This document shows positions 35,428-60,258 of a stretch of DNA of 64,000 nt, in pieces. Every line of letters begins with the position of its first letter. Positions within the stretch are counted from its first letter, which is position 1. The DNA comes from Escherichia coli. Its GTDB lineage: Bacteria; Pseudomonadota; Gammaproteobacteria; Enterobacterales; Enterobacteriaceae. Both the position numbers and the translations under genes were made by a program. The notes under the pieces were generated by a model. The model made no database searches. It was not told the DNA's origin and worked only from the letters and a program-made list of their open reading frames with translations. The DNA is taken from the NCBI RefSeq assembly GCF_011045215.1, contig NZ_CP049201.1. One strand, written 5' to 3'.

Positions 35428-35515
35428 GGTGAGGTGTCCGAGTGGCTGAAGGAGCACGCCTGGAAAGTGTGTATACGGCAACGTATCGGGGGTTCGAATC
35501 CCCCCCTCACCGCCA
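35428..35515 (+). tRNA. serX: tRNA-Ser (anticodon GGA)
   Basis: 88-nt sequence GGTGAGGTGTCCGAGTGGCTGAAGGAGCACGCCTGGAAAGTGTGTATACGGCAACGTATCGGGGGTTCGAATCCCCCCCTCACCGCCA; anticodon loop CTGGAAA, long variable arm, GGTTCGAATCC T-arm, CCA end; coordinates anchored to overlapping ORF 35442..35702. Confidence 0.95.
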
Positions 35516-35518
35516 GAT

Positions 35519-35552
35519 TATAAGCGCATGTTATTGTTTAACATGCGCTTTT
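35519..35552 (+). terminator. rho-independent terminator after serX
   Basis: AAGCGCATGTT-ATTGTTT-AACATGCGCTT followed by TTTTTATTTT. Confidence 0.8.
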
Positions 35553-35664
35553 TTATTTTCCCTTTCAGACAGTATGCCATCGGGTATGCCATCTGAAACC
35601 GGTTTATATGCCCCGCGATCATATCTTATCGGACAATTTCCGATCTTTGAGCATACTGGCAAAG

Positions 35665-36507
35665 CTATACTGCCAGCATATCAGGATAGTGTTTTGCGAT
35701 AATATCATTCAGTCTGTCAACCAGTTCTGGTTTTCTGAACGTGATATGCGCGGAGCCCTTCTTAAAGTATCTGATGCTGAACATCTCATCTTCATAGCTC
35801 TCTTTACCCTGAACAGACTGAATGTGATCATCCAGACGAAGGGTGATGTTTCCCCGGTTGTCGGGGATTGGTTTACCGCTGAACAGGTGCAACATTCTTT
35901 CCAGATCGGCGAGTCGATCTGCCTGTTGCCCGGTGATAAGGTGAAATCCCCACCGGTCCCACCTCACCAGGTTGTTGACGATAATTTTACTGCCAAATTT
36001 GCAGGGGCAATTGGTTTTGTAATTCCAGTTCAATCCTCTGAAGACGTTGATCACCCCTCGCTCAAACACCTCATCCTTATTCTGGTGCAGTTGTTCAAAT
36101 GTGCTCAGAATGTTCGCTTCGCTGATTTCCGGAAAATTATCGTACTCCAGTGACCGGTACCATGTATCACGGGCCTGCGTATCCATTAATGACAGCATCC
36201 CGGAACGTTGCATCAGGTCACGCCAGATTTCGCGATCAAGATTCCGGGTAATGGCTTTCATTGCTGTTTCGGGTTTCTCCATCAGCCAGCAACCGCAGCG
36301 AAAATCCTGTTTCATGGCCCAGTCCGGGGCAGTTTTACCTCCGATGCTTTCCGTCAGCACCGAGATTTCAGCCAGTTGTCGGATAAGTGTGTCGATTTGC
36401 AACAGTGTACTCTTTCGTACAGCCAGAATGTGGCGAATGCTGGTTGAGCAGATAACGTCCGTATGCCCGTTGACCACTTCCGGACGGGAGATTGTGATAT
36501 CTGACAT
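35665..36507 (-). CDS. island protein of unknown function, recalled as DUF4942-like
   Basis: ORF track 280 aa, MSDITISRPEVVNGHTDVICSTSIRHILAVRKSTLLQIDTLIRQ...; first gene of the island next to serX; family from recollection of CP4-like islands. Confidence 0.6.
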   Translation of the reverse strand: MSDITISRPEVVNGHTDVICSTSIRHILAVRKSTLLQIDTLIRQLAEISVLTESIGGKTAPDWAMKQDFRCGCWLMEKPETAMKAITRNLDREIWRDLMQRSGMLSLMDTQARDTWYRSLEYDNFPEISEANILSTFEQLHQNKDEVFERGVINVFRGLNWNYKTNCPCKFGSKIIVNNLVRWDRWGFHLITGQQADRLADLERMLHLFSGKPIPDNRGNITLRLDDHIQSVQGKESYEDEMFSIRYFKKGSAHITFRKPELVDRLNDIIAKHYPDMLAV

Positions 36508-36591
36508 AATCGATATTCCTTTTTGCAGATAAATGAAAACGCCAGCCCTGTTCAGGCTGGCGTCAGAGGAATGAAGTCTGGTGAGTGAGCT

Positions 36592-36789
36592 TCACCGGTT
36601 CTGGTGCAGAAGCTGCAGATGACGCAGGGTACGGACATCCTCCCGGGCCTGTTCGATACAGGGCAACAGTGCTGCTGAATCCGTTTTATCCTCATCGTTG
36701 TCAAAGATAATTCCCGATCCGCAGTCGATATTGTCCTGCAGCCACGCAATCAGAATATCCAGCGCTGTTTCCGTGGTTAATGATTTCAT
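36592..36789 (-). CDS. small island protein, recalled as DUF957-like
   Basis: ORF track 36592..36834; residue 16 Met gives 65 aa MKSLTTETALDILIAWLQDNIDCGSGIIFDNDEDKTDSAALLPCIEQAREDVRTLRHL... Confidence 0.6.
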   Translation of the reverse strand: MKSLTTETALDILIAWLQDNIDCGSGIIFDNDEDKTDSAALLPCIEQAREDVRTLRHLQLLHQNR

Positions 36790-36800
36790 GTTGTTTCTGG

Positions 36801-37289
36801 TTACCAGTCGAAAGTGGGTAAACCCGGCAGGCATTCAGCGCTGGCATCCAGATGAATGAGACTGACGCCATAACGTCGGGTAAGTGTGACAACCAGACGA
36901 CGGAACGTTTTTGACAGGCCCAGGCGCTTAAGCCGCAGAACCGGGTATGACCACGCATCGGTACGTAACAGATATCCGCTACCTGTGAAATGAATCCATT
37001 CTGATTCGCCGGTGTCATTCGTCTGATGTGACAGCGAGTACAGCCAGGCGTTGTCCTTTTCCGTGATATGTGCGGTACTGCAGCGTATGCCGGTAAGGGC
37101 AGCAAATGGTGGCGTGCAGTCTGCTGAGGTCCGGTCAGATTCATCAACAACACGAAGGGAGTAGCCGTTATCGCAGACCATGTTAATCAGTTCAGCGAGC
37201 TCAATACCATCAACGTCAACGACAATGCGCCCCATGTTCAGTGCCTGCACGTTAATGCTGTCGGCTTCCAGCGTCAGGGCCAGTTTCAT
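36801..37289 (-). CDS. YeeW-like protein downstream of the toxin gene
   Basis: ORF track 162 aa, MKLALTLEADSINVQALNMGRIVVDVDGIELAELINMVCDNGYSLRV...; ATG overlaps the toxin stop (ATGA). Confidence 0.7.
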   Translation of the reverse strand: MKLALTLEADSINVQALNMGRIVVDVDGIELAELINMVCDNGYSLRVVDESDRTSADCTPPFAALTGIRCSTAHITEKDNAWLYSLSHQTNDTGESEWIHFTGSGYLLRTDAWSYPVLRLKRLGLSKTFRRLVVTLTRRYGVSLIHLDASAECLPGLPTFDW

Positions 37290-37663
37290 TGTTTCGCCCC
37301 CGGATGTTTACCCAGGGTAATGTTATTTACCGTTCTGTAGTTGTCGCGTGTCATCAGGCCGGTTGCCCGGCGTGCCCGGAGGATATCAATACTGTTTATT
37401 AACTGAGAACGGGTACAGGCGCTGAATCCCGGCTGGTCGGTACGCACCAGTGCGTATTTTTCAACGAGAAAGTTCACCGCATTGCACAGTGAAATGCCTG
37501 CCTCAATATGCTGCTCAATCACACGTTCATCAGCGAACGGTGTGTCATTCAGTGTGAGACCGTAATGCTGGTCCAGCAGTCGGGTGAGCAGTGTCTGCCA
37601 GATGGTGACGGGAGACGGGCAGCGCGATGCCTCCCGTACGTGTGTGTCAGGTAATGTTTTCAT
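37286..37663 (-). CDS. CbtA/YeeV/YkfI-family type IV toxin (cytoskeleton-targeting)
   Basis: ORF track 37286..37765; residue 35 Met gives 125 aa MKTLPDTHVREASRCPSPVTIWQTLLTRLLDQHYGLTLNDTPFADERVIEQHIEAGISLCNAVNFLVEKYALVRTDQPGFSACTRSQLINSIDILRARRATGLMTRDNY..., near-identical to recalled CbtA/YpjF. Confidence 0.9.
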   Translation of the reverse strand: MKTLPDTHVREASRCPSPVTIWQTLLTRLLDQHYGLTLNDTPFADERVIEQHIEAGISLCNAVNFLVEKYALVRTDQPGFSACTRSQLINSIDILRARRATGLMTRDNYRTVNNITLGKHPGAKQ

Positions 37664-37709
37664 CTTAAGTTCTCTGTAACTGGTAGTGCTAAAGGTGAGA
37701 TATTCGGGG

Positions 37710-38084
37710 TTATGAGGTGGTTGCGGGTGCCAGTGTCGAATAAACAGCCATATAAACGTAACCACAGCTGCCGAGGGTGTCGGCTTCGCAGGTCAGCCCT
37801 CTGGCATACAGCGTGACGGTATGCTGATGGCGGGGATTCAGTTCACCGCTGGTGAGCATGAGTTCCAGTTGTTTCATCAGCAGCGGAAAGGCCTGGTCCA
37901 GATGGTACGCATCCGCGTCGCTGAACCGGCCTCTGATACCGGCGCGGTCTGCAAGGTAATGCAACCGGTTACCCTCCTGCACCAGACGTGCTCCGAAACA
38001 AGGTGTCACGGTACAGGGCAGTCCCCACCAGGGGCGGCCGCGATTGTCGTCGGGATGAGTTGTCTCATGGAGTGTGTCTGACAC
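37710..38084 (-). CDS. CbeA/YeeU/YfjZ-family antitoxin
   Basis: ORF track 124 aa, MSDTLHETTHPDDNRGRPWWGLPCTVTPCFGARLVQEGNRLHYLADRAGIRGRFSDADAYHLDQAFPLLMKQLELMLTSGELNPRHQHTVTLYARGLTCEADTLGSCGYVY...; directly upstream of the toxin. Confidence 0.9.
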   Translation of the reverse strand: MSDTLHETTHPDDNRGRPWWGLPCTVTPCFGARLVQEGNRLHYLADRAGIRGRFSDADAYHLDQAFPLLMKQLELMLTSGELNPRHQHTVTLYARGLTCEADTLGSCGYVYMAVYSTLAPATTS

Positions 38085-38158
38085 AATAAAATCCTCACAA
38101 AAAATCAGTTAAGAATGGTCCGGTGGCAGCGATAATTCTGCTCATCATTTCTCCTGAC

Positions 38159-38380
38159 TCAGTTCAGAGTGACGCTCATCAGCCGGACATACGGGCCAAA
38201 ACTGTCCTTACGGCGTTCTGCAAACACGGCCAGCACACCGGGAATATCCTGCACTTCACGACCGGTATACGCCTCAGCACTGCCGTGCCAGCGGTATTTG
38301 CCGGTACAGAACGGAAAAAGACGGGATGCAGGATGTTGTTGGTGAATACGCATGGCTTCACCACGGGTGATAATTTTCAT
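38159..38380 (-). CDS. YeeT-like protein (DUF987)
   Basis: ORF track 73 aa, MKIITRGEAMRIHQQHPASRLFPFCTGKYRWHGSAEAYTGREVQDIPGVLAVFAERRKDSFGPYVRLMSVTLN. Confidence 0.85.
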   Translation of the reverse strand: MKIITRGEAMRIHQQHPASRLFPFCTGKYRWHGSAEAYTGREVQDIPGVLAVFAERRKDSFGPYVRLMSVTLN

Positions 38381-38448
38381 GGTGGGATACCTCTGAAGAC
38401 AGAAGATAAAAGTGAAAACAGGTGTGATGTGGTTGTGACGGTGACGGG

Positions 38449-38940
38449 TTAAAGCAGACCGTGTTCCGCAAAGGAGAAAACCTGGTTGCCTCCGACTATC
38501 AGATGGTCCGGCACCCGGATGTCCACCAGGGCCAGCGCCTGTACCAGACGTTCGGTGATAAGCCGGTCTGCCTTACTGGGTGTGACTTCACCGGACGGAT
38601 GATTGTGTGCCAGCACCACGGCTGCGGCATTGTGATACAGGGCGCGTTTAATCACTTCCCGGGGATGGACTTCCGTGCGGTTGATAGTGCCGGTGAAGAG
38701 GGTTTCACCGGCAATCAGCTGATTCTGGTTATTCAGATACAGCACCCGGAATTCTTCACGCTCCAGTCCCGCCATGTTCAGAATCAGCCATTCCCGTGCC
38801 GCATGCGTGGAGGTGAAGGCCACGCCGGGTTCATGAAGATGGCGGTCCAGGGTTTTCAGGGCCCGCTGAATGAGACTGCGCTCGCCGGGCGTCATCTCTC
38901 CGGGCAGAAAGGAAAGCTGTTGCATTGCCCCTGCCTCCAT
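38449..38940 (-). CDS. RadC-like JAB-domain protein (YeeS/YkfG/YfjY family)
   Basis: ORF track 163 aa with HNHPSGEVTPSKAD (JAMM-like HxHPSG) motif; alternative ATG at 38925 (MQQLSFLPGEMTPGERSLIQRAL...). Confidence 0.88.
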   Translation of the reverse strand: MEAGAMQQLSFLPGEMTPGERSLIQRALKTLDRHLHEPGVAFTSTHAAREWLILNMAGLEREEFRVLYLNNQNQLIAGETLFTGTINRTEVHPREVIKRALYHNAAAVVLAHNHPSGEVTPSKADRLITERLVQALALVDIRVPDHLIVGGNQVFSFAEHGLL

Positions 38941-39426
38941 TCAGTCGATGATGCGCATAATGGCGCTGCATTCCGGATGTTGCAGGGCGTAATCCCGCAA
39001 CCGATAATAATGGACCGTCATGGCATAACACTCCGTACGACAGGCATGATGACTGTACGTCATCAGACAGGCGGCAATGCCGGCGGCTTCCGGACTCATT
39101 TCAGCGCGGTTACCGTTCATGGCATTGAACAGTACCCATGTTTCGTCATCATCGTCATCCGGTTCGGGTGCCATAAATGCCCCGCCGTTGTTCAGGGTGT
39201 ACAGATTCCAGATACCACCGCAGTAGTCTTCGCACAGACGGTCCATCCAGCCGAAGACACGGGGTTCCAGGGTCACCCACTGTGGAATGAGGCCAAAGTG
39301 CTGCGGCCAGAAGCTGATGCGCTGTTCATCAGGGACGGGAGTGGCAACCAACTGAGACTGGTTATTCCCTGATGCAGTAGTTACGGAAACAGAAGGTGTG
39401 GTGGAGCTATGCGAAAAGGTTGTCAT
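38941..39426 (-). CDS. antirestriction protein, ArdB/KlcA family (YfjX/YafX-like)
   Basis: ORF track 161 aa; C-terminal 120 aa (RISFWPQHFGLIPQWVTLEPRVFGWMDRLCEDYCGGIWNLYTLNNGGAFMAPE...HYYRLRDYALQHPECSAIMRIID) match recalled YfjX/KlcA. Confidence 0.85.
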   Translation of the reverse strand: MTTFSHSSTTPSVSVTTASGNNQSQLVATPVPDEQRISFWPQHFGLIPQWVTLEPRVFGWMDRLCEDYCGGIWNLYTLNNGGAFMAPEPDDDDDETWVLFNAMNGNRAEMSPEAAGIAACLMTYSHHACRTECYAMTVHYYRLRDYALQHPECSAIMRIID

Positions 39427-39517
39427 GAGATGATTCCTTATAAAAAGTAAATGAATGGAAGAATGCCTGGGGATTGGTACAGACGTGAGTCAGGGCTGCA
39501 CTTTCAGGGAAACAGCA

Positions 39518-40336
39518 TTAGCGCATGCTCTCCAGCAGCGTTTCTGCCATCACCCACAATGCGCGATTGAGCTTAATGTCCGTGTCGATGCTGTGAATGG
39601 CACGGGTGTGGATACGTTTTCCTTTAGCGCTGCGACCGGAAATTCCGCCTTTCAGCATATTCTCCTGAATGGTCTGATAAGCACTCCACAGGTCCTTACC
39701 GTAATCCTCCCTGCGTCGTGGTGTCAGAATGTCGGCGGTGGTGACGGGCTGATGTTCGTCACCATAACGGTAAGTCAGTGCCGCCTGTGCCAGCGCCTGG
39801 TGTGCCGGTGGCGGCAGAATCAGCGACTGCATGGCATCACGCTTTTCCTCAATCCGGTCAAAAACGCCCACCACTTCGTAAGCCCCTTCAATAACTTTCT
39901 CCACCACGTCTCCCCGGTGCGGAACACGCACCTCTCCCAGAGACTGACCGCAGACGCACCCGTTCTGACAAACGAATCTGAAGTAACCCGGCAGCATCTG
40001 GTAGCTGGAGGTACCGTCATGGGAATTGAGCAGGATGATTTCCGGGACATGCTGTCCGTTTATCTCTCCGGCCCGCCGCAGACGCAGCATGTGTTTGGTA
40101 TACCCCCGGCGGCCCGGGTCACGTACGCGGGTCTGGCAGGCGAAGAAGGGCTGAAAGCCCTCCCGCTGCAGACTTTCCAGCACGGTGATGGTGGGGATAT
40201 ACGTATAGCGTTCACTGCGGGAGGTATGCCGGTCTTCCCCAAAAATACCGGGTACATAGTGCATCAGCTCTTCATGTGTCAGCGGACGGTCACGGCGTAT
40301 CTGGTTCGCATAACCAAAACGACTTGCTAATCGCAT
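39518..40336 (-). CDS. DUF932-domain protein (YafZ/YfjQ-like)
   Basis: ORF track 272 aa, MRLASRFGYANQIRRDRPLTHEELMHYVPGIFGEDRHTSRSERYTYIPTITVLESLQREGFQPFFACQTRV... Confidence 0.75.
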   Translation of the reverse strand: MRLASRFGYANQIRRDRPLTHEELMHYVPGIFGEDRHTSRSERYTYIPTITVLESLQREGFQPFFACQTRVRDPGRRGYTKHMLRLRRAGEINGQHVPEIILLNSHDGTSSYQMLPGYFRFVCQNGCVCGQSLGEVRVPHRGDVVEKVIEGAYEVVGVFDRIEEKRDAMQSLILPPPAHQALAQAALTYRYGDEHQPVTTADILTPRRREDYGKDLWSAYQTIQENMLKGGISGRSAKGKRIHTRAIHSIDTDIKLNRALWVMAETLLESMR

Positions 40337-40544
40337 GATCTGCTCCTTATGAATGATTAAGCGGTATAAATGAAAAAGCCGCAGCTCCCGGAGAAGACGC
40401 GGCCTGATGGATGATGTTTATTGTCTGAGGTACCCTTCACGGGCGGGCCACGCATTAAGCTGTTATGACAGCAACCGCCTGCCCGTATGAGAAAGATCCT
40501 TCAGCCAGGACATACTCTGTGTAACCCGGCATATCTGTTTTCTC

Positions 40545-40585
40545 CTGATAAATAAAAAGCCTCTGCCACGCGTTGTGACAGAGGC
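40545..40585 (-). terminator. terminator after the secreted-protein gene
   Basis: hairpin GCCTCTG-N11-CAGAGGC with T-run on the minus strand. Confidence 0.6.
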
Positions 40586-40610
40586 TGAAGCATGAAACTG
40601 ACTTCAGGGA

Positions 40611-41066
40611 TCAGTTAACGTTTTTTCCGGAAACGGTAATTAGCAGTGGATGGTAGTCCTGGGGATCGAAAACCGATAACGGCAGACTGACACGATGGCC
40701 GTTACTTTCTTCAGTTGCTTTAATGATTTCGGTTGTGGCGACATTTTCCACGCACTCCGTTTCCAGAAATGCGTCTGTGGTTCGCGTGGCATCACTGTCA
40801 CCAAAGGCTTCCGTTTCCATTTTTCTGGTCACCAGCCTCTGACCATATTTGTCTTTGAGTTGCAGAGTGATGGTGAGGGGGCCAAATCCTTCTCCGTTTC
40901 CGCCATTATCCAGCCGGAACTGGTAAGCACAAATATTTCCCGGGAGCCATATCGTATCTGTATTGCGTATACTGATGTAACGTTGATCCTGTGCCCGGAG
41001 TGGGGCAGACCACGTTAACCCCAGAATGACGCCGGTAATAATGCAGGTTTTGAACAGGTGAATCAT
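40611..41066 (-). CDS. hypothetical secreted protein
   Basis: ORF track 151 aa, MIHLFKTCIITGVILGLTWSAPLRAQDQRYISIRNTDTIWLPGNICAYQFRLD...; predicted cleavable signal peptide; no family recognised. Confidence 0.6.
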   Translation of the reverse strand: MIHLFKTCIITGVILGLTWSAPLRAQDQRYISIRNTDTIWLPGNICAYQFRLDNGGNGEGFGPLTITLQLKDKYGQRLVTRKMETEAFGDSDATRTTDAFLETECVENVATTEIIKATEESNGHRVSLPLSVFDPQDYHPLLITVSGKNVN

Positions 41067-41141
41067 GGTATTTACCTCTCTGAGTCATGACGATGACACT
41101 GACAAATCAGGTGATAAAACGTAAAAGGTGCAGAATACTCG

Positions 41142-50309: not shown

Positions 50310-52748
50310 ATGGCTATCAAAAAAACCGAACTCTATTCTTCCCTGTGGGCAAGCTGCGACGAACTGCGTGGCGGGATGGACGCCAGCCAGTACAAAGACT
50401 ATGTACTGACCCTGCTGTTTATGAAGTACGTTTCCGATAAGTATAAAGGCGATCCTTACGGGATGATCGTGATACCCAAAGGAGCCAGCTTTGACGATAT
50501 GGTTGCGCTGAAAAATGACAAAGAGATCGGCGACAAAATCAACAAAATCATCCACAAGCTGGCGGAAGAGAACGGCCTGAAGGGCGTCATCGACGAAGCC
50601 GACTTTAACGACGAAGATAAGCTCGGCAAAGGCAAGGAAATGATTGACCGCCTGAGCAAGCTTGTCGGTATCTTTGAAGGGTTAAATCTCTCCAGCAACC
50701 GGGCCGAAGGCGACGATCTGCTGGGCGATGCCTATGAATATCTGATGCGTCACTTCGCAACCGAATCCGGTAAGAGTAAAGGGCAGTTTTACACTCCAGC
50801 GGAGGTGTCACGTATTCTGGCGAAGGTGATTGGTATTACTCCCGATACTCCGCAAGATGCAACGGTTTATGACCCAACCTGTGGCTCTGGTTCGCTGCTG
50901 TTGAAAGTGAATGATGAAGCCCGGCGCGGACTGTCGATTTTCGGCCAGGAGATGGATAACGCTACCAGTGCGCTGGCGCGGATGAACATGATTCTGCATA
51001 ACAATGCCACCGCGAAAATCTGGCAGGGCAATACGCTGAGCGATCCGCAGTGGAAAGAGGCGAACGGCAAACTGAAAGCCTTCGATTTTGCCGTGGCGAA
51101 CCCGCCTTTTTCCAATAAAAACTGGACCAACGGGCTGACGCCGAAAAAAGATCCGTTTGAACGCTTCGGCTGGGGTATTCCGCCGGAAAAAAACGGCGAT
51201 TATGCTTTTTTGTTGCATATCATTAAAAGCCTGAAAAGTACCGGCAAAGGCGCGGTGATCCTGCCCCACGGCGTACTGTTTCGCGGTAACGCCGAAGCGA
51301 ATATCCGTGAAAATCTAATCAAGCAGGGCTATATCAAAGGCGTTATTGGTTTGCCAGCCAACCTGTTTTACGGCACCGGCATCCCGGCGTGCATCATTGT
51401 GATTGATAAAGAGCACGCCCACAGCCGCAAAGGCATTTTTATGATCGACGCCAGCCGGGGCTTTATCAAAGATGGCAACAAGAACCGCCTGCGTAGCCGA
51501 GATATTCACCGCATTGTGGACGTGTTCAACCATCAGCGAACGGTACCTGGCTACAGCCGGATGGTGCCCTCCAGCGAGATCGCCGGAAATGATTACAACC
51601 TGAATATTCCTCGCTATATCGAGAGCGGCGAGCCGGAAGATTTACACGATCTGACCGCGCACTTACAGGGCGGTATTCCGGCACGCGATGTGGATGCTTT
51701 GCAAGATTACTGGCGGGTATTCCCTGCCCTGCGCAACGTGCTGTTTGCTGACGACCGTCCCGGTTACTGTCGGGCGCAGGTGAACGCGCAACAGGTGAAA
51801 CCGACCATTCTGGCGCATCAGGAGTTTAAGGATTTTGCCACCCGCAGCCTGCTACCGTTTAAAGCGTGGGTGAAAGAGGCAAGTCTGGAAGAGATTCGCA
51901 AAGGTGATAAACCCAAAGCGCTAATCCACGATATCAGCGAAATGCTATTGGCGCAGTACGCCAACAGTGAGTTGCTGAACAAATACAGCGTGTACCAGAT
52001 CCTGATGGATTACTGGACTGATGTCATGCAAGACGATGTGTATGCGATTATGCAGGATGGCTGGCAAGCCGCCGCGCAAATCCGCGAGCTTCAGCCGGTG
52101 AAAGGCAAAGATGGCAAAAACATCTGGAAAGAAACGCACGATTTCGAGTTTACCAAACGGCGCTACAAGGCCGATGTGCTGCCCCGTTCGCTGGTGGAAA
52201 TTCGCTGTTTCCCGGAACTGCTGGATGCGCTGAACCGCGCGCAGGAGCGCAGTGAAGAAGCCAGTCGTCAGCTAGTGGAATTCATCGAGGAGCAGGCAGG
52301 TGAAGAGGATCTGCTGGCCGAGGCGAAGAACGATAAAGATAAGGTGACGCAAAAGCTGGTGAATGCCCGTCTAGCACAGTTAAAGAAAACCACTGCCGGC
52401 CCAGATGAGCTGGCAGTGCTGAACCGCTGCCTGGCGCTAATTAAGGCCGAAGCCAGTGCGAAAAAAGCGCTGAAAGCCGCACAAGAAGCGCTGGATCGGG
52501 CGGTGTTTAAACATTATCCCACGCTGGATGAAGCAGCGATTAAAACGCTGGTAGTGCAGGATAAGTGGCTGGCAACGTTGCAGGCAGGGATCAAGGCGGA
52601 GATTGAGCGTATTACCCAGCAACTGGCGTCGCGCGTAAAGGAGCTGGAAGAGCGTTATGCTGAACCGTTGCTAGCGCTTGAAGCCTCCGTTGAGGCGTTG
52701 AGCGAGAAAGTGGCCGGGCATTTGCGGGCGATGGGGCTGGAGTGGTGA
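50310..52748 (+). CDS. hsdM: type I restriction-modification system methyltransferase subunit HsdM (long form)
   Basis: ORF track 812 aa; AdoMet motif DPTCGSGSLL and catalytic motif VANPPFS read directly; stop overlaps hsdS start. Confidence 0.9.
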   Translation: MAIKKTELYSSLWASCDELRGGMDASQYKDYVLTLLFMKYVSDKYKGDPYGMIVIPKGASFDDMVALKNDKEIGDKINKIIHKLAEENGLKGVIDEADFNDEDKLGKGKEMIDRLSKLVGIFEGLNLSSNRAEGDDLLGDAYEYLMRHFATESGKSKGQFYTPAEVSRILAKVIGITPDTPQDATVYDPTCGSGSLLLKVNDEARRGLSIFGQEMDNATSALARMNMILHNNATAKIWQGNTLSDPQWKEANGKLKAFDFAVANPPFSNKNWTNGLTPKKDPFERFGWGIPPEKNGDYAFLLHIIKSLKSTGKGAVILPHGVLFRGNAEANIRENLIKQGYIKGVIGLPANLFYGTGIPACIIVIDKEHAHSRKGIFMIDASRGFIKDGNKNRLRSRDIHRIVDVFNHQRTVPGYSRMVPSSEIAGNDYNLNIPRYIESGEPEDLHDLTAHLQGGIPARDVDALQDYWRVFPALRNVLFADDRPGYCRAQVNAQQVKPTILAHQEFKDFATRSLLPFKAWVKEASLEEIRKGDKPKALIHDISEMLLAQYANSELLNKYSVYQILMDYWTDVMQDDVYAIMQDGWQAAAQIRELQPVKGKDGKNIWKETHDFEFTKRRYKADVLPRSLVEIRCFPELLDALNRAQERSEEASRQLVEFIEEQAGEEDLLAEAKNDKDKVTQKLVNARLAQLKKTTAGPDELAVLNRCLALIKAEASAKKALKAAQEALDRAVFKHYPTLDEAAIKTLVVQDKWLATLQAGIKAEIERITQQLASRVKELEERYAEPLLALEASVEALSEKVAGHLRAMGLEW

Positions 52749-54088
52749 TGGTGGATTTAATGGTGAATGAGCAACGGTCGAGTACGGCGGGGAAAGATGT
52801 GCCTGCGGGGTATAAACTGACTGAGGTGGGCGTGATTCCTGAGGATTGGGATTGCGTACCATTTGGTAATCTGTTTAAAACAAACACAAAGAAAAAAAAA
52901 GTCAGCGATTATGAGCTAGTTTCATTTATTGGGATGCAGGATGTTAGTGAAGATGCACAATTAAAAAATAATACTCAACTTCCTTTTAAAGAAGTTAAAA
53001 GTGGTTTTACTTACTTTGAAAAAGGGGATGTTTTATTAGCTAAAATAACCCCTTGTTTTGAAAATGGAAAAGGATGTCATACCGCTGATTTACCTACTAA
53101 TGTAGGTTTTGGGAGTACGGAATTTCATGTATTAAGGGAAAATGAAGACTCCGATTCTCGCTTCATCTATTTTTGGACAACTGATAAAAAATTCAGAGCA
53201 TCACTGGAATCTGAAATGGTGGGAAGTGCGGGACACCGTCGTGTGCCGCTAGTTGCTATAGAAAAATATTTGATTCCATGTCCCCCAAATTTGCAAGAGC
53301 AAAGTGCTATTGCTGATTCATTATCTGATATTAATAATTTTATTCTAGCTCTAGAAAAGCTTATCGTTAAAAAACAAGCCATTAAAACCGCTACTATGCA
53401 GCAACTACTGACGGGTAAAACCCGTTTGCCACAGTTTGCGTTACGCAAAGATGGCTCTGCTAAGGGATATAAAAAGAGCGAGTTGGGGGCGATTCCTGAA
53501 GATTGGGTAGTCACAAGCATTGGACAATTTACTGACTGCTGTGCTGGTGGAACTCCGAGTACTAAAATTTCAGCATATTGGGGAGGAACTCATCCTTGGA
53601 TGAGTTCCGGCGAATTACACTTAAAACAAGTGTATGCTGTAGCCGATTATATAACCGACGAAGGGCTTGTTAACTCCAGTACAAAGTATGTGCCTAAAAA
53701 TTCTGTATTAGTCGGATTGGCAGGACAAGGAAAGACTCGAGGGACTGTAGCAATTAATCGCATTGAATTATGTACTAATCAGTCTATTGCTGCGATTTTC
53801 CCCAGCAAACATCATTCCACAGAATTCCTGTTCTATAACCTCGACAGTCGTTATGAGGAACTGAGAAGTTTATCTACTGGTGATGGGGGGCGTGGTGGGT
53901 TGAATCTTACTATTATCAGGAAATTACATCTTGCATTTCCGCCAAAAGAAGAACAAGCCGCCATCGCCGCCATCCTCTCCGATATGGACAAGGAAATCCA
54001 GATCCTGCAACAGCGTCTGGACAAAACCCGCCAGCTTAAGCAAGGGATGATGCAGGAACTGTTAACCGGGAAAATCCGCTTAATATAG
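52748..54088 (+). CDS. hsdS: type I restriction-modification system specificity subunit HsdS
   Basis: ORF track 52742..54088 (448 aa); ATG at 52748 overlaps the hsdM TGA; two target-recognition-like halves with AT-rich codon usage. Confidence 0.88.
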   Translation: MVDLMVNEQRSSTAGKDVPAGYKLTEVGVIPEDWDCVPFGNLFKTNTKKKKVSDYELVSFIGMQDVSEDAQLKNNTQLPFKEVKSGFTYFEKGDVLLAKITPCFENGKGCHTADLPTNVGFGSTEFHVLRENEDSDSRFIYFWTTDKKFRASLESEMVGSAGHRRVPLVAIEKYLIPCPPNLQEQSAIADSLSDINNFILALEKLIVKKQAIKTATMQQLLTGKTRLPQFALRKDGSAKGYKKSELGAIPEDWVVTSIGQFTDCCAGGTPSTKISAYWGGTHPWMSSGELHLKQVYAVADYITDEGLVNSSTKYVPKNSVLVGLAGQGKTRGTVAINRIELCTNQSIAAIFPSKHHSTEFLFYNLDSRYEELRSLSTGDGGRGGLNLTIIRKLHLAFPPKEEQAAIAAILSDMDKEIQILQQRLDKTRQLKQGMMQELLTGKIRLI

Positions 54089-54100
54089 AAGGGAAAGCAC

Positions 54101-54757
54101 ATGGCTTATGATTACAGCGCCAGCCTCAACCCGCAAAAAGCTCTGATCTGGCGTATCGTCCATCGGGACAATATCCCGTGGATTCTGGATAACGGGCTGC
54201 ACTGCGGCAACAGTCTGGTGCAGGCGGAAAACTGGATCAATATCGGCAACCCGGAGCTGATCGGCAAGCGTGCCGGGCATCCGGTACCTGTCGGAACGGG
54301 CGGGACACTGCATGACTATGTGCCGTTTTATTTTACCCCCTTCTCGCCAATGCTGATGAACATCCACAGCGGGCGCGGCGGCATTAAGCAACGCCCCAAT
54401 GAGGAGATCGTTATTCTGGTCAGCAACTTGCGGAACGTGGCAGCACACGACGTGCCCTTCGTGTTTACCGACAGCCATGCTTACTATAACTGGACCAACT
54501 ACTACACCAGTCTGAATAGTCTGGACCAGATCGACTGGCCCATTTTGCAGGCACGGGACTTTCGCCGCGATCCAGACGATCCGGCTAAATTTGAACGCTA
54601 TCAGGCAGAGGCGCTAATCTGGCAACACTGCCCGATCTCTCTGCTGGATGGGATAATTTGTTACAGCGAAGAGGTCAGGTTACAATTAGAGCAATGGCTG
54701 TTTCAGCGTAATCTAACAATGTCCGTTCACACACGGGCTGGATGGTACTTCTCATGA
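54101..54757 (+). CDS. darT: DarT, DNA ADP-ribosyltransferase toxin (DUF4433)
   Basis: ORF track 218 aa; motifs [18 protein letters not shown] and C-terminal GWY(F) line up with recalled DarT; starts 13 nt after hsdS stop. Confidence 0.88.
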
Positions 54758-55821
54758 TCACATATACACAAGGCAATTTACTGGACGCACCGGTGGAAGC
54801 TCTGGTGAATACGGTTAATACCGTCGGTGTCATGGGGAAAGGCATCGCGTTGATGTTTAAAGAGCGCTTCCCCGAAAATATGAAAGTCTATGCCCTCGCT
54901 TGCAAACAAAAGCAGGTGATCACCGGCAAAATGTTCATTACCGAAACCGGGGAACTGATGGGACCGCGCTGGATTGTTAATTTTCCGACCAAACAGCACT
55001 GGCGCGCTGATTCCCGCATGGAGTGGATTGAAGATGGCTTGCAGGACTTACGCCGCTTTTTGATTGAAGAGAACGTGCAGTCCATCGCCATTCCACCACT
55101 GGGCGCAGGCAACGGTGGTTTGAACTGGCCGGACGTTCGGGCGCAGATTGAATCTGCCCTTGGCGACCTTCAGGACGTTGATATCCTGATTTACCAACCG
55201 ACTGAAAAATACCAGAACGTTGCCAAAAGCACTGGCGTAAAAAAGCTCACTCCCGCCAGAGCCGCCATCGCTGAACTGGTGCGTCGCTACTGGGTATTGG
55301 GGATGGAGTGCAGCCTACTGGAAATCCAGAAACTGGCCTGGCTGTTACAACGCGCCATTGAGCAGCATCAACAGGACGATATCCTCAAACTGCGGTTTGA
55401 AGCTCACTATTATGGCCCCTATGCGCCCAATCTGAACCATCTGCTTAATGCGCTGGACGGCACCTATCTAAAAGCCGAGAAACGCATCCCGGACAGCCAA
55501 CCGCTGGATGTGATCTGGTTTAACGATCAAAAAAAAGAACACGTTAATGCGTATCTGAACAACGAAGCCAGAGAGTGGCTACCTGCGCTGGAGCAGGTCA
55601 GCCAGTTAATTGACGGCTTTGAATCGCCGTTTGGTCTGGAGTTGCTGGCAACCGTAGACTGGTTGCTGAGCCGTGGCGAATGTCAACCAACGCTGGATTC
55701 CGTTAAGGAAGGACTGCACCAGTGGCCTGCGGGCGAACGCTGGGCCAGCCGTAAGTTGAGGCTGTTTGATAATAATAATCTGCAATTTGCCATTAACCGC
55801 GTAATGGAGTTCCATTGCTGA
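54754..55821 (+). CDS. darG: DarG, macrodomain antitoxin (DNA ADP-ribosyl glycohydrolase)
   Basis: ORF track 54742..55821; ATG at 54754 overlaps darT stop (ATGA); N-terminal macrodomain signature [39 protein letters not shown]; about 200-aa C-terminal domain. Confidence 0.88.
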
Positions 55822-55839
55822 GGGTTTAAGGAGCGCCTT

Positions 55840-58800
55840 TTGAGTACCGTGGGCCAGCGCGAACGCGCCACACAGCAGCGTCTGATTCAGTTTTTTGTTG
55901 AAGATTTAGGATACCGCCATCTGAGTCACCGCACCGGGTACACCGGGAACAGCAACATCGACACTAATATACTGAGCGCGTGGCTAAAACGGCGCGGCGT
56001 TAATGATACGTTGATCACCCGGGCGTTGCGGCAACTGGATTCCGCCGCCGCCCTGGGCGAAGGCAAAAAACTCTATTACGCCAATAAAGAGGTCTATCGC
56101 CTGCTGCGTTACGGCGTGAAAGACAAAGAAGGTGCAGGCGAGCAGAACCAAACCGTGTGGCTGATTGACTGGGCCAACCCACAAGCCAATGATTTCGCCA
56201 TCGCCGATGAGGTGACGGTCAAAGGCGAGTACTGCAAGCGCCCGGATCTGGTGCTGTACGTTAACGGCATTGCGCTGGGCGTGATTGAACTTAAGCGTTC
56301 GTCAGTGCACGTCAGCGAAGGTATCCGGCAGAATCTCGATAATCAAAAGAAAACCTTTATCCGCGATTTCTTCACCACTATGCAGTTAGTGATGGCAGGC
56401 AACGATACGCAGGGCCTGCGCTACGGCACCATCGAAACCCCGGAAAAATACTATCTGGAGTGGAAAGAAGATAATCCAGGCGACTATACACATAAACTCG
56501 ACTTTCATTTAAGTCGTCTGTGTAGCAAATCCAGGCTGTTGGATATCGTCCATAATTACATTGTCTTTGATGTCGGGGTGAAAAAACTCTGCCGCCATAA
56601 TCAGTTCTTCGGCGTCGAGGCGGCTAAGCAACATATTGCCCGTCGTGAAGGCGGTATTATCTGGCACACACAGGGATCGGGTAAAAGCCTGACGATGGTC
56701 TGGCTGGCGAAGTGGATCCGTGAAAATGTGCCAAACTCCCGCGTGTTGATTGTGACTGACCGCACCGAACTGGATGAACAGATCGAAAGCGTGTTTATGG
56801 GCGTGAATGAAGATATTTATCGCACCTCCAGCGGCAACGATCTTATCGCAACGCTCAATCATCCTAACCCGTGGCTTATTTGCTCGCTGGTGCATAAATT
56901 TGGTTGTCGCAGCGAAGCTGAAGACAATGCGGCTACCGACGCCTTTATCACCGAATTACAGCAGTCCCTGACGAAAACATTCCGCGCCAAAGGCGATCTG
57001 TTTGTTTTTGTGGACGAGTGCCACCGCACACAATCCGGCAAGCTGCATAACGCCATGACTGCCATTCTGCCGGACGCCCTGTTTATCGGTTTTACCGGCA
57101 CACCGCTGATGAAGAAAGATAAGAAGAAGTCGGTTGAGGTGTTCGGCCCTTATATCCATACCTATAAATTTGATGAAGCGGTGGCCGACGGTGTGGTGCT
57201 GGATCTGCGCTACGAGGCGCGCGATATTGACCAGTATCTGACATCAGAGAAAAAGGTCGATGACTGGTTTGAAGCCAAGACTCGCGGTTTGTCGAATTTA
57301 GCCAGGACCCAGCTTAAGCAAAAGTGGGGATCAATGCAGAAGCTGCTCTCCAGCAAGTCGCGGCTGGAGCAGATCGTTAACGACATTTTGCTGGATATGG
57401 ATACCCGTCCACGCCTGATGGACGGGCGCGGCAACGCCATGCTGGTATGCAGCAGTATCTATCAAGCCTGCAAGGTTTACGAGATGTTCAGCCAGACCGA
57501 GCTGGCAGGAAAAGTAGCGATTGTGACCAGCTATCGCCCCGATGCCGCCAGCATCAAAGGCGAAGAAACGGGCGAAGGGTTAACGGAGAAACTCTCTAAA
57601 CACGCCACCTATCGTAAAATGTTGGCTGACTATTTTGAACAAAGTGAAGAGAAGGCCGCCGCACGCATTACCGAGTTCGAGCGGGAAGTGAAACAACGTT
57701 TTATTGAAGAGCCGGGGCAAATGCGCCTGCTTATCGTGGTGGACAAGCTGTTGACTGGCTTTGACGCGCCGTCCGCCACCTATCTCTACATTGATAAAAC
57801 CATGACCGACCATACGCTGTTTCAGGCGATTTGTCGGGTGAACCGGCTGGACGGTGAGGATAAAGAGTATGGCTATATTATCGATTATAAAGATCTGTTC
57901 CGTTCGCTGGATAAAGCGATTACCGATTACACCACGGGCGCGTTTGATGATTACGATCGGGACGATGTGGCCGGGTTGCTGAAAGACAGGCTGGAGCAGG
58001 CGCAACTGGATCTCGACAGCGCGCTGGAGATGGTTCGCAGCTTATGTGAGCCCGTCAAAACCCCGCGCAGCCTGCAGGACTATCAGCACTATTTTTGCGG
58101 TAAATCAGGAGAGAATCAGACTTCGTTAAACGAAAAAGAGGCGCTGCGCCTGACATTTTACCAGTGCGTCGCCCGTCTGCTACGCGCTTATGCCAGCATC
58201 GCCAATGAAATGCCGGAAGCAGGCTACACTGCCGAAGAGGTAGAGAGCATTCGCGCCGAAGTCGCTGAATTCGAAAAACTGCGCTATGAGATTAAGCTGA
58301 CCAGCGGCGATCTTCTGGATATGAAGCGCTTTGAACCCGCTATGCGTCATTTACTGGATATGTATGTTCGCGCCGATGGTAGCGAAGTGCTGATGGATTT
58401 TGAAGAGTTAAGTCTGATTGAACTGATTGTCGAGAAAGGCTTGGCGGCGACCGTCGCCCTGCCGGATGATATCCGTAATAATCAGGATGCGATGGCGGAA
58501 ACCATCGAAAACAACGTGCGCAAAACCATCGTGGATGAAAACCCGGTTAACCCAAAATACTATGGACGCATGTCGCAGCTGCTGGATGAACTGATTACCC
58601 TTCGCCGACAAAATGCGCTCAATTATCAGCAGTATCTGGAACGTATCCGCGATTTGTGTAAACAGGTCATCCGCCCGGAGCAAACCGCCGGAGCGTGCTA
58701 CCCTGCCACCATGGATACACAAGCAAAGCGCGCCTTCTATGACAACTTCGGCCACGACGAGGTACTGGCGACCCGCATAGATACGACAATTCGCTATACC

Positions 58801-58935
58801 AAAAGGGCAGAGTGGATTGGCGATCGTTTTAAAGAACGGGAAATTGCCAACGCATTACGTGAAGAGACCGCCAGCTATAATATTGATATTGATGAGGTGA
58901 TAGCGCTTGCCCGTCAGCAGAAGGAATATCACTGA
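55840..58935 (+). CDS. hsdR: type I restriction enzyme endonuclease/translocase subunit HsdR
   Basis: ORF track 1031 aa; nuclease-like DLVLYVNGIALGVIELK and helicase DECH (FVFVDECHRTQ) motifs read; starts 19 nt after darG. Confidence 0.92.
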   Translation: MSTVGQRERATQQRLIQFFVEDLGYRHLSHRTGYTGNSNIDTNILSAWLKRRGVNDTLITRALRQLDSAAALGEGKKLYYANKEVYRLLRYGVKDKEGAGEQNQTVWLIDWANPQANDFAIADEVTVKGEYCKRPDLVLYVNGIALGVIELKRSSVHVSEGIRQNLDNQKKTFIRDFFTTMQLVMAGNDTQGLRYGTIETPEKYYLEWKEDNPGDYTHKLDFHLSRLCSKSRLLDIVHNYIVFDVGVKKLCRHNQFFGVEAAKQHIARREGGIIWHTQGSGKSLTMVWLAKWIRENVPNSRVLIVTDRTELDEQIESVFMGVNEDIYRTSSGNDLIATLNHPNPWLICSLVHKFGCRSEAEDNAATDAFITELQQSLTKTFRAKGDLFVFVDECHRTQSGKLHNAMTAILPDALFIGFTGTPLMKKDKKKSVEVFGPYIHTYKFDEAVADGVVLDLRYEARDIDQYLTSEKKVDDWFEAKTRGLSNLARTQLKQKWGSMQKLLSSKSRLEQIVNDILLDMDTRPRLMDGRGNAMLVCSSIYQACKVYEMFSQTELAGKVAIVTSYRPDAASIKGEETGEGLTEKLSKHATYRKMLADYFEQSEEKAAARITEFEREVKQRFIEEPGQMRLLIVVDKLLTGFDAPSATYLYIDKTMTDHTLFQAICRVNRLDGEDKEYGYIIDYKDLFRSLDKAITDYTTGAFDDYDRDDVAGLLKDRLEQAQLDLDSALEMVRSLCEPVKTPRSLQDYQHYFCGKSGENQTSLNEKEALRLTFYQCVARLLRAYASIANEMPEAGYTAEEVESIRAEVAEFEKLRYEIKLTSGDLLDMKRFEPAMRHLLDMYVRADGSEVLMDFEELSLIELIVEKGLAATVALPDDIRNNQDAMAETIENNVRKTIVDENPVNPKYYGRMSQLLDELITLRRQNALNYQQYLERIRDLCKQVIRPEQTAGACYPATMDTQAKRAFYDNFGHDEVLATRIDTTIRYTKRAEWIGDRFKEREIANALREETASYNIDIDEVIALARQQKEYH

Positions 58936-59651
58936 TGCCAATCATGCAAATAGGCTCGTTACACTTGCTGGTCAACCGTAAGGCGATTAAGAATCTGCAT
59001 ATCAGCGTGCTGCCGCCTGATGGCAAAGTCCGCGTTTCAGCGCCGGAACATATGACGGAGACGGCGATTCGTATGGCGGTTGCTTCACGCTTTCGCTGGA
59101 TCAGAAAACAGCAGCAGGATTTCGCCAGACAGCCTCGTCAATCAGAGAGGGAAATGGTCAGCGGAGAGTGCCACTATCTTTGGGGCCGAAGATATCGCCT
59201 ACTTGTGATTGAGCGTCACGGGCGTCACGAAGTAAAAGTTGCGGGAAATAATAAGCTCCAGCTTTATGTTCAACCGGGAACCCGTGATGAAAATAAGGCA
59301 TTGGCGTTAAGTGAATTTTATCGACATGAACTAAAACAGCAGGTGGCTAAGCTTCTACCTGAATGGCAAGACCGAATCGGTGTTCCCCTAACATTCTGGG
59401 GCATCAAAAAGATGAAAACCTTTTGGGGCACCTGTAACACTACAACAAAACGAATCTGGCTCAATCTGGAGCTAATTAAGAAGCCGCCGGAGTGTCTGGA
59501 GTATATTCTGGTGCATGAACTGGTTCATCTTCTGGAACGTCACCATAATGCTCGCTTCCGGTTGCATATGGATCGGTTTATTCCTGACTGGCGTGAGCGT
59601 CGGGATTTGTTAAATAATATGCCGTTAGCGTTTGAGGCATGGGAGTATTGA
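58935..59651 (+). CDS. DUF45/YgjP-like zinc metallopeptidase-domain protein
   Basis: ORF track 238 aa; HEXXH motif ILVHELVHLLERHH; ATG overlaps the hsdR stop by 1 nt. Confidence 0.8.
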   Translation: MPIMQIGSLHLLVNRKAIKNLHISVLPPDGKVRVSAPEHMTETAIRMAVASRFRWIRKQQQDFARQPRQSEREMVSGECHYLWGRRYRLLVIERHGRHEVKVAGNNKLQLYVQPGTRDENKALALSEFYRHELKQQVAKLLPEWQDRIGVPLTFWGIKKMKTFWGTCNTTTKRIWLNLELIKKPPECLEYILVHELVHLLERHHNARFRLHMDRFIPDWRERRDLLNNMPLAFEAWEY

Positions 59652-60258
59652 TTGAGCCTGTAACTGTTTTTTGTCCATAAATTAACCTTCATTTGATGCT
59701 GGATAGAACATATCAAAATCAGACAATTACACAAATCTATGTACAGGCTCAACTCCTGCCATGGAACGTAGTACTCACCAATAAGTAAGCATCAATACGG
59801 CGCTCCGTTAACGCTTACTAGCATGGTTATCTCCTTAAAAAATTGAGGCGACAACTATGCTGACACAGGGGGTTACTCACCGATCTCCTTCACGGTAATA
59901 CGCAGTTCTTCAGAACCCGCCTCCGATACCAGCCTGGCGGTCGCCCCGGCGCAAGCAAAATAAATCGACCATTGTCAGACTGCGATCGTTCGGATGCCCC
60001 GCCACCGACGCATCAGTATGAGTTAACCGAAACGATACAAAATTGCCTGAGAATCATTACGCTGGCTGATGGAAGGCACACCAAAAGCCTCTGCACAGAA
60101 CGATGTTCGGCAACAACAGAAACATGATTGCGTTCATGGCAATAGTCATTCGTACCGTTACAGGCGGTATTGATTTATTACAGACAAGCGGTACATATAT
60201 GTACCGCTTGGTTAAGTAAAAAAACAGATATGAACGCTATTATGTTCATTCTACTTTA

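Follow-up and report, generated by a model that had tools for sequence, protein, structure and literature searches.

In this work we have analysed a toxin–antitoxin (TA) module, and the gene that follows it, in a 64,000-nucleotide stretch of the Escherichia coli contig NZ_CP049201.1 (assembly GCF_011045215.1), referred to here in its entirety as the window. Three genes lie at the locus, all on the minus strand, in the order antitoxin, toxin and a third gene resembling yeeW:

37710..38084, minus strand: antitoxin gene of the CbeA/YeeU family, GTG start at 38084, 124 amino acids (aa)
37286..37663, minus strand: toxin gene of the CbtA family, ATG start at 37663, 125 aa
36801..37289, minus strand: YeeW-like gene (DUF5983_N plus the DUF5983 C-domain), ATG start at 37289, 162 aa

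An earlier note, made from the letters alone, had placed the three genes at these coordinates and had called the locus a CbtA/CbeA-type module. The coordinates match both the open reading frame (ORF) listing and the sequence, and the identification is borne out by full-length Pfam matches and by identity to the K-12 proteins. The antitoxin, encoded directly upstream of the toxin on the same strand, belongs to PF06154 (CbeA_antitoxin, 1.4e-54), and the toxin to PF06755 (CbtA_toxin, 4.7e-63, 210.6 bits with a cutoff of 25, model coverage 1-112/112). Since the CbtA_toxin model aligns in full from the ATG at 37663, the toxin start is placed there; the GTG at 37765, with which the mechanical ORF begins, is an over-extension. 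A GAGG motif lies 9 nt 5' of the antitoxin GTG, and 46 nt separate the antitoxin stop from the toxin ATG. The antitoxin, toxin and YeeW-like ORFs are all intact and full length against the Pfam models, and each is present in a single copy within the window. Among solved structures the antitoxin matches 2INW (4e-75) and 2H28 (YeeU, 2.7e-71), as well as 2EA9/2JN7 (YfjZ); no structure of a CbtA-family toxin is present in the Protein Data Bank. The window antitoxin is 89.7% identical to CbeA, 68% to YfjZ and 64% to YafW, and the toxin is 88.7% identical to CbtA, 65% to YpjF and 61% to YkfI. The translations, which had been taken as near-identical to the K-12 paralogs, thus reach about 89% with CbeA/CbtA and only 61–68% with the YpjF/YfjZ and YkfI/YafW pairs. 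The pairing of ykfH with ykfI also has to be corrected, YkfH being a DUF987 protein and YafW the antitoxin of YkfI.

Where the toxin meets the YeeW-like gene (...GCGAAACAATGAAACTG...), its stop TGA (37288..37286) overlaps the YeeW-like ATG (37289..37287), so that in the text ...CCGGGGGCGAAACAATGAAACTG... the toxin TGA lies inside an ATGA at 37289..37286, an overlap that had been claimed before and can be read directly in the sequence. A GGGGG run, Shine-Dalgarno-like and inside the toxin 3' end, is found 7 nt 5' of the YeeW-like ATG. Because of this overlap and of the G-run, the YeeW-like protein would most likely be made by ribosomes that have just terminated on the toxin, in proportion to toxin synthesis. 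The conservation of the arrangement, described below, makes translational coupling to the toxin a well supported prediction. The protein itself matches DUF5983_N (PF25638, 2e-31, positions 1-55/56) and the DUF5983 C-terminal domain (PF19419, 1.1e-22, positions 3-90/90), while K-12 YeeW is a 64-aa remnant that retains only the N-domain, with 64% identity over 55 aa to the window protein. The ratio of nonsynonymous to synonymous substitution rates (dN/dS) of the YeeW-like gene against its orthologues is 0.15–0.38, a range like that of the toxin (0.12–0.38 for the two genes together), and by this measure the YeeW-like gene is a real gene under purifying selection. In a TA survey, DUF5983 is given as the 'partner' that constantly follows CbtA, in nearly all E. 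coli sequence types (PMC10790755), and a 2026 preprint also notes that it adjoins cbtA/cbeA. We found no paper with an experiment on a DUF5983/YeeW-like gene, and the earlier note, which could assign this gene no known role, is upheld on this point.

Is the third gene part of the TA system? A CbtA alignment scan of one genome per species gave 80 loci across Enterobacterales, and all ORFs at these loci were searched with profiles. DUF5983 was found in 14 of them, always directly 3' of the toxin and on the same strand, and was absent from the other 66. All 14 DUF5983-bearing loci encode toxins of the long class (125–127 aa); the 104–113-aa toxins resembling YpjF and YkfI are followed by DUF4942 or by nothing recognisable. 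A 4-nt overlap between the toxin and DUF5983, as ATGA or, in Erwinia and Winslowiella, as TTGA, is present in 11 of the 14 (from E. albertii, Kluyvera, Serratia, Citrobacter, Trabulsiella, Erwinia, Winslowiella and Buttiauxella), and the remaining three have a 13-nt spacer with GGAG. These loci have only about 60–70% nucleotide identity to the window, and half of them (7/14) carry a DUF957-type gene 3' of DUF5983. Since the gene order recurs in thousands of E. coli genomes and the 4-nt overlap in 11 of 14 diverged loci, the arrangement is not due to chance. Nevertheless, judged from the distribution of the DUF5983 gene, CbtA systems in general can clearly do without it. The 'compact three-gene unit' of the earlier note stands as regards adjacency and the ATGA overlap; as a description of how tightly the genes are linked it goes too far, because the third gene is missing from 66 of the 80 CbtA loci and its C-domain occurs without CbtA on plasmids. 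Enterobacterial CbtA-DUF5983 modules (loci L006, L019 and L020; protein P0310) were also seen on contigs labelled as a Lachnospiraceae metagenome-assembled genome, Chryseobacterium sp. and Enterococcus durans; these most likely represent contamination or mis-binning in public assemblies.

By tblastn the DUF5983 C-domain is found on 269 plasmids, and 233 of these are of a conjugative or mobilisable type. We examined seven contexts free of CbtA, namely one metagenomic contig and plasmids of Salmonella, Enterobacter, Serratia, Yersinia, Klebsiella and Pantoea. All seven carry leading-region markers (psiA/psiB, hok, higBA, antirestriction, N6 methylase or DUF4942, DUF932, or ParB), and in six the DUF5983 homologue occupies the end proximal to oriT, directly before mobC/mobA/traI or an F-type transglycosylase; in none of the seven does CbtA/CbeA lie near it. 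An eighth context, an IncHI1B/FIB Klebsiella plasmid, bears the whole island-type module, including CbtA and a full-length DUF5983. The plasmid proteins, which exist in forms of about 100 aa or of 188 aa, have a C-domain homologous to that of the window protein (29–47% identity), whereas their N-terminal region is absent or unrelated to the window DUF5983_N. An N-domain shared between DUF5983_N and the N-terminal ~95 residues of the 188-aa plasmid proteins was considered and is unsupported (hhalign E=0.1), and DUF5983_N may be private to the CbtA-linked subfamily. As far as these contexts tell, the DUF5983 C-domain defines a mobile-element family that is not TA-specific. Leading regions are known to be enriched in anti-defence, methyltransferase and TA genes, and one in three of the families common in them is uncharacterised (PMC11541004); in the literature we found nothing tying DUF932 to them. 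The plasmid neighbours of DUF5983 that are shared with the island module are DUF932, antirestriction and DUF4942 or N6 methylase genes, and because DUF932, antirestriction, DUF5983 and DUF4942 also cluster in plasmid leading regions, the island module looks like a leading-region gene set.

The DUF5983 family is narrow: in a search of 1.84 billion representatives it accounts for 218 clusters (50% identity), and many of its members there are fragments. An AlphaFold2 model of the YeeW-like protein, built from a 27-sequence alignment, has a mean predicted local distance difference test score (pLDDT) of 81.8, with values above 90 for the C-domain (residues about 65–162) and of 58–72 for the N-domain, a beta-hairpin plus a helix. 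Five residues, H74, D79, G105, S126 and the C-terminal W162, do not vary among the 27 aligned members and all are present in the window protein, and the C-domain has no relative among solved structures. We also folded the toxin and the YeeW-like protein as one chain joined by a (GGGGS)6 linker, using an alignment paired over 12 loci to which unpaired homologues were added. This fusion gave a predicted template modelling score of 0.36 and a mean pLDDT of 57.7, and the confidence of the YeeW N-domain fell, so that there was no sign of a complex in what is a crude test, with a shallow paired alignment, a linker that may add artefacts, and neither predicted aligned errors nor coordinates. The third gene product is neither SecB-like nor any other recognisable chaperone, which sets the module apart from TAC-like (toxin–antitoxin–chaperone) systems.

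The three genes belong to the end of an island inserted at a tRNA gene, and the other features of this end are the following:

35428..35515, plus strand: tRNA-Ser(GGA) serX, the island insertion site (ARAGORN, Rfam tRNA)
35665..36507, minus strand: DUF4942 gene (methyltransferase-related), the last island gene, adjoining serX (Pfam PF13708, 8.7e-69; PHROG DNA methyltransferase, 2.3e-17)
36538..36564, minus strand: terminator-like hairpin from a consensus scan, 11-bp stem and T-rich tail, between the DUF957 and DUF4942 genes
36592..36789, minus strand: DUF957-type ORF, 65 aa, beginning 11 nt past the YeeW-like stop in another frame; the last gene before the hairpin
38159..38380, minus strand: DUF987 gene (YeeT/YkfH type), directly upstream of the antitoxin (Pfam PF06174, 5.4e-40)
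38449..38940, minus strand: RadC-like JAB gene (Pfam, 3e-45)
38941..39426, minus strand: antirestriction gene, ArdB/KlcA type (Pfam, 2.4e-37)
39518..40336, minus strand: DUF932 gene (Pfam, 1.2e-51)
40558..40586, minus strand: terminator-like hairpin, preceding DUF932

The tRNA-Ser(GGA) gene is identified as serX because it adjoins ghrA-ycdX, in agreement with the serX island proposed earlier, and the left flank of serX (csgG, ycdZ, ycdY, ycdX and ghrA) is 99.7% identical to E. coli chromosomes. The order of the island end is DUF932, antirestriction, RadC-like, DUF987, CbeA, CbtA, DUF5983, DUF957 and DUF4942. Most of the 80 loci repeat the DUF932/antirestriction/RadC-like order, as do the K-12 elements CP4-6, CP4-57 and CP4-44, and by its gene content and order the serX block is the conserved terminal module of a CP4-like island. 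The DUF987 protein is 98.6% identical to K-12 YeeT. The hairpin at 36538..36564 is the probable, consensus-predicted 3' end of the transcription unit. PADLOC assigned no family to any of the nine module proteins at E<=0.01, and an NCBIfam search of the module proteins gave no match. The name DUF957 comes from the RefSeq annotation of equivalent genes, the 65-aa ORF having no match in current Pfam or NCBIfam. In two database proteins (P0003 and P0116) DUF5983 is fused by read-through to an out-of-frame translation of the DUF957-type region. AntiFam ANF00264 may model such fusions; according to a suggestion in a 2026 preprint, this AntiFam entry may stand for a real product, possibly one linked to a frameshift. 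The counterparts in K-12 of the antirestriction and RadC-like JAB genes (38449..39426, minus strand) are lfgA and lfgB, and a reported activity of LfgB, a protease of cryptic-prophage origin, is cleavage of the antitoxin MqsA (PMC10846083).

Beyond DUF932 the island carries IrmA, an 840-aa ORF, an Ag43-like autotransporter and a YeeP-type GTPase. The 840-aa ORF (41142..43664, minus strand), which sits where a related island has a gene annotated 'hypothetical protein', and a 314-aa ORF (48088..49032, minus strand) have no Pfam match at E<=0.001. An Rfam match to the IS102/IsrC small RNA (74.4 bits, 46647..46883, minus strand) lies directly 5' of the Ag43-like autotransporter gene (43779..46703), an arrangement that parallels isrC-flu in K-12 CP4-44. 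The same serX island bears as defence cargo a type I restriction-modification operon (50310..58935, plus strand), with hsdM (812 aa), hsdS and hsdR (1031 aa), into which genes for a DarT single-stranded DNA ADP-ribosyltransferase (54101..54757) and a macro-domain/SocA DarG-like protein (54742..55821) are inserted between hsdS and hsdR. A search for a second serX 3' end (25-mer, <=3 mismatches) within 35516..64000 found none, so the island is longer than 28 kb, and its far end and integrase must lie past position 64000.

The module is common in E. coli. The 1.9-kb TA-YeeW segment matches 4981 of 5426 complete E. coli genomes, at a median of 3 places per genome, and a near-full-length copy of the module is present in 3649 of them, where RefSeq names the three products 'type IV toxin-antitoxin system YeeU family antitoxin', 'TA system toxin CbtA family protein' and 'DUF5983 family protein'. 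The serX position, which the earlier note had set off against the K-12 prophage copies, is not unusual: the serX-DUF4942 junction occurs in 1347 of the 5426 genomes, O157:H7 among them. In the serX island of O157:H7 strain TR01 (WP_000976853.1, WP_000854914.1, WP_001280954.1) the gene order is identical from serX through DUF932 and the serX-DUF4942 junction is 99% identical to that of the window; the TA-YeeW allele is a different one, and the island cargo differs too. Among complete RefSeq genomes the closest match to the 1.9-kb segment reaches 95.8% nucleotide identity and lies at a tRNA-Ile site; this is ordinary allelic mosaicism. All three exact window proteins are already named in NCBI/GenBank, on a 5.41-Mb E. 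coli chromosome; the exact antitoxin is entered under the name 'type IV toxin-antitoxin system YeeU family antitoxin' and the exact toxin is found on 40 contigs. The exact 162-aa DUF5983 protein has two GenBank identifiers (QIF12133.1 and QIF14206.1) on this one chromosome, and the strain therefore has a second identical copy elsewhere, outside the window. Nothing about the TA pair is thus new: there is prior record of the family and its mechanism, of how many copies E. coli carries and of this exact allele.

As to how the pair acts, the K-12 system is of type IV, in which CbeA works on the cytoskeletal filaments and not on the toxin, as established for K-12 CbeA and as described for the Pfam family. 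Hallmarks of the family are that overproduced toxin is harmful and gives lemon-shaped cells, and that the cognate antitoxin gives rescue without binding the toxin. By family homology, the window antitoxin would stabilise or bundle these filaments and would not sequester the toxin. Heller et al. 2017 (PMC5624674) showed that CbtA touches FtsZ and MreB directly and independently, and in this way blocks division and elongation; the F65S change abolishes the contact with FtsZ (H6/H7 loop) and R15C the contact with MreB (PMC5624674). In the window toxin, residue 65 is Phe (...NAVNF65LVEKY...), the FtsZ determinant being kept, and codon 15 (37619..37621, minus strand) encodes Cys, with Arg at position 14, where K-12 CbtA has R15. 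Because F65 is kept but position 15 is Cys, FtsZ targeting can safely be predicted and MreB targeting is uncertain. The C15 residue is common to YpjF and YkfI, where it is natural; both of these toxins also bind FtsZ through F65, and YpjF binds MreB despite its C15 (PMC5624674). We thus propose, from homology with the family, that the toxin would bind FtsZ through the F65 surface and probably MreB, and would stop division and elongation.

We consider it probable that the locus is a standard CbtA/CbeA type IV TA pair with a co-translated accessory DUF5983 protein of mobile-element origin, in a CP4-like island at serX. The YeeW-like gene would then travel with one CbtA subclade as an accessory passenger that the TA system does not require, and its product would serve the mobile element, in establishment or entry, rather than the control of the toxin; in our analysis such a mobile-element role appears more likely than toxin modulation. 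Several points weigh against this proposal. Toxicity, rescue, coupling and any function of the YeeW-like protein are all inferred. The promoter scan found no minus-strand sigma-70 consensus promoter, leaving the transcription unit undefined, and C15 leaves MreB targeting uncertain, so that this allele may differ in that respect. No relaxase or oriT was seen in the window, and the leading-region analogy rests on homologues elsewhere. Finally, strict adjacency, the conserved overlap and a DUF5983_N unrelated to the plasmid N-termini would also fit a toxin-specific role. These last features are the basis for regarding the YeeW-like protein as a true third TA component, a modulator, second antitoxin or chaperone of CbtA/CbeA made in stoichiometry with the toxin through coupling, as in the tripartite antitoxin-toxin-chaperone systems. 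The same-strand position directly 3' of the toxin and the overlap shared across genera speak for it, as do the confinement of DUF5983 to the long-toxin subclade, the listing of DUF5983 as CbtA 'partner' in the TA survey, and the fact that DUF5983_N, with no detectable counterpart in the plasmid homologues, is the very part kept in K-12 YeeW. With the third gene missing from most CbtA loci and the C-domain living without CbtA on plasmids, we regard such a role as unlikely.

A reading of the module as what is left of a cryptic element, decaying and non-functional, with three inactive ORFs, could be suggested by the K-12 counterparts, which lie in cryptic prophages with many pseudogenes and include a truncated yeeW, and by the many fragmentary DUF5983 proteins returned by the representative search. 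The full-length window ORFs, the dN/dS values of the toxin and YeeW-like genes and the recurrence of identical proteins on many contigs make this highly improbable. A more far-reaching version of the accessory-protein proposal is that the whole DUF932-to-DUF4942 block, at the end of CP4-like islands nearest the tRNA gene, might be the chromosomal counterpart of a plasmid leading region, with DUF5983 as an establishment or anti-defence factor acting on entry into a new host, which in the long-toxin CbtA subclade would have acquired coupling to the toxin and a private N-domain; we put this forward tentatively, as a possible but rather doubtful extension. If this extension is true, the dose of DUF5983 in that subclade would track toxin synthesis, and the protein could tune CbtA or exploit the window of toxin expression. 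The TA module itself being ordinary, the value that is left lies in the third gene, which roughly two in three complete E. coli genomes carry and which is under purifying selection and without a known fold relative. What this study adds is that DUF5983 is optional for CbtA systems, that where it occurs a conserved 4-nt overlap joins it to the toxin in most loci, and that its family occupies the oriT-proximal slot of plasmid leading regions.

Among the closest known systems is the CbtA/CbeA (YeeV/YeeU) pair of K-12 CP4-44, which has the same Pfam families and the same order yeeS-yeeT-cbeA-cbtA-yeeW, and whose flanking Ag43, YeeP and IsrC genes also have counterparts in the window island. The two copies differ in several respects. 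The window island is at serX and the K-12 copy at the CP4-44 site; the gap between antitoxin and toxin is 46 nt in the window versus 88 nt in K-12; the window antitoxin diverges from CbeA C-terminally, past residue 117; and the window toxin has R14-C15 where CbtA has S14-R15, plus one additional C-terminal residue. The third gene is full length (162 aa) in the window, whereas in CP4-44 it is truncated with a rearranged junction. The YpjF/YfjZ (CP4-57) and YkfI/YafW (CP4-6) pairs belong to the same families and have the same RadC-DUF987 context upstream, but their toxins are shorter (109–113 aa), lack the C-terminal tail and are not followed by a DUF5983 gene. These K-12 paralogues, which have no YeeW gene alongside, show toxicity that their own antitoxins neutralise (Wen et al. 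2017, PMC5371832). In CP4-6, inserted at thrW, the toxin end adjoins the tRNA gene, the same layout as that of the window module at serX.

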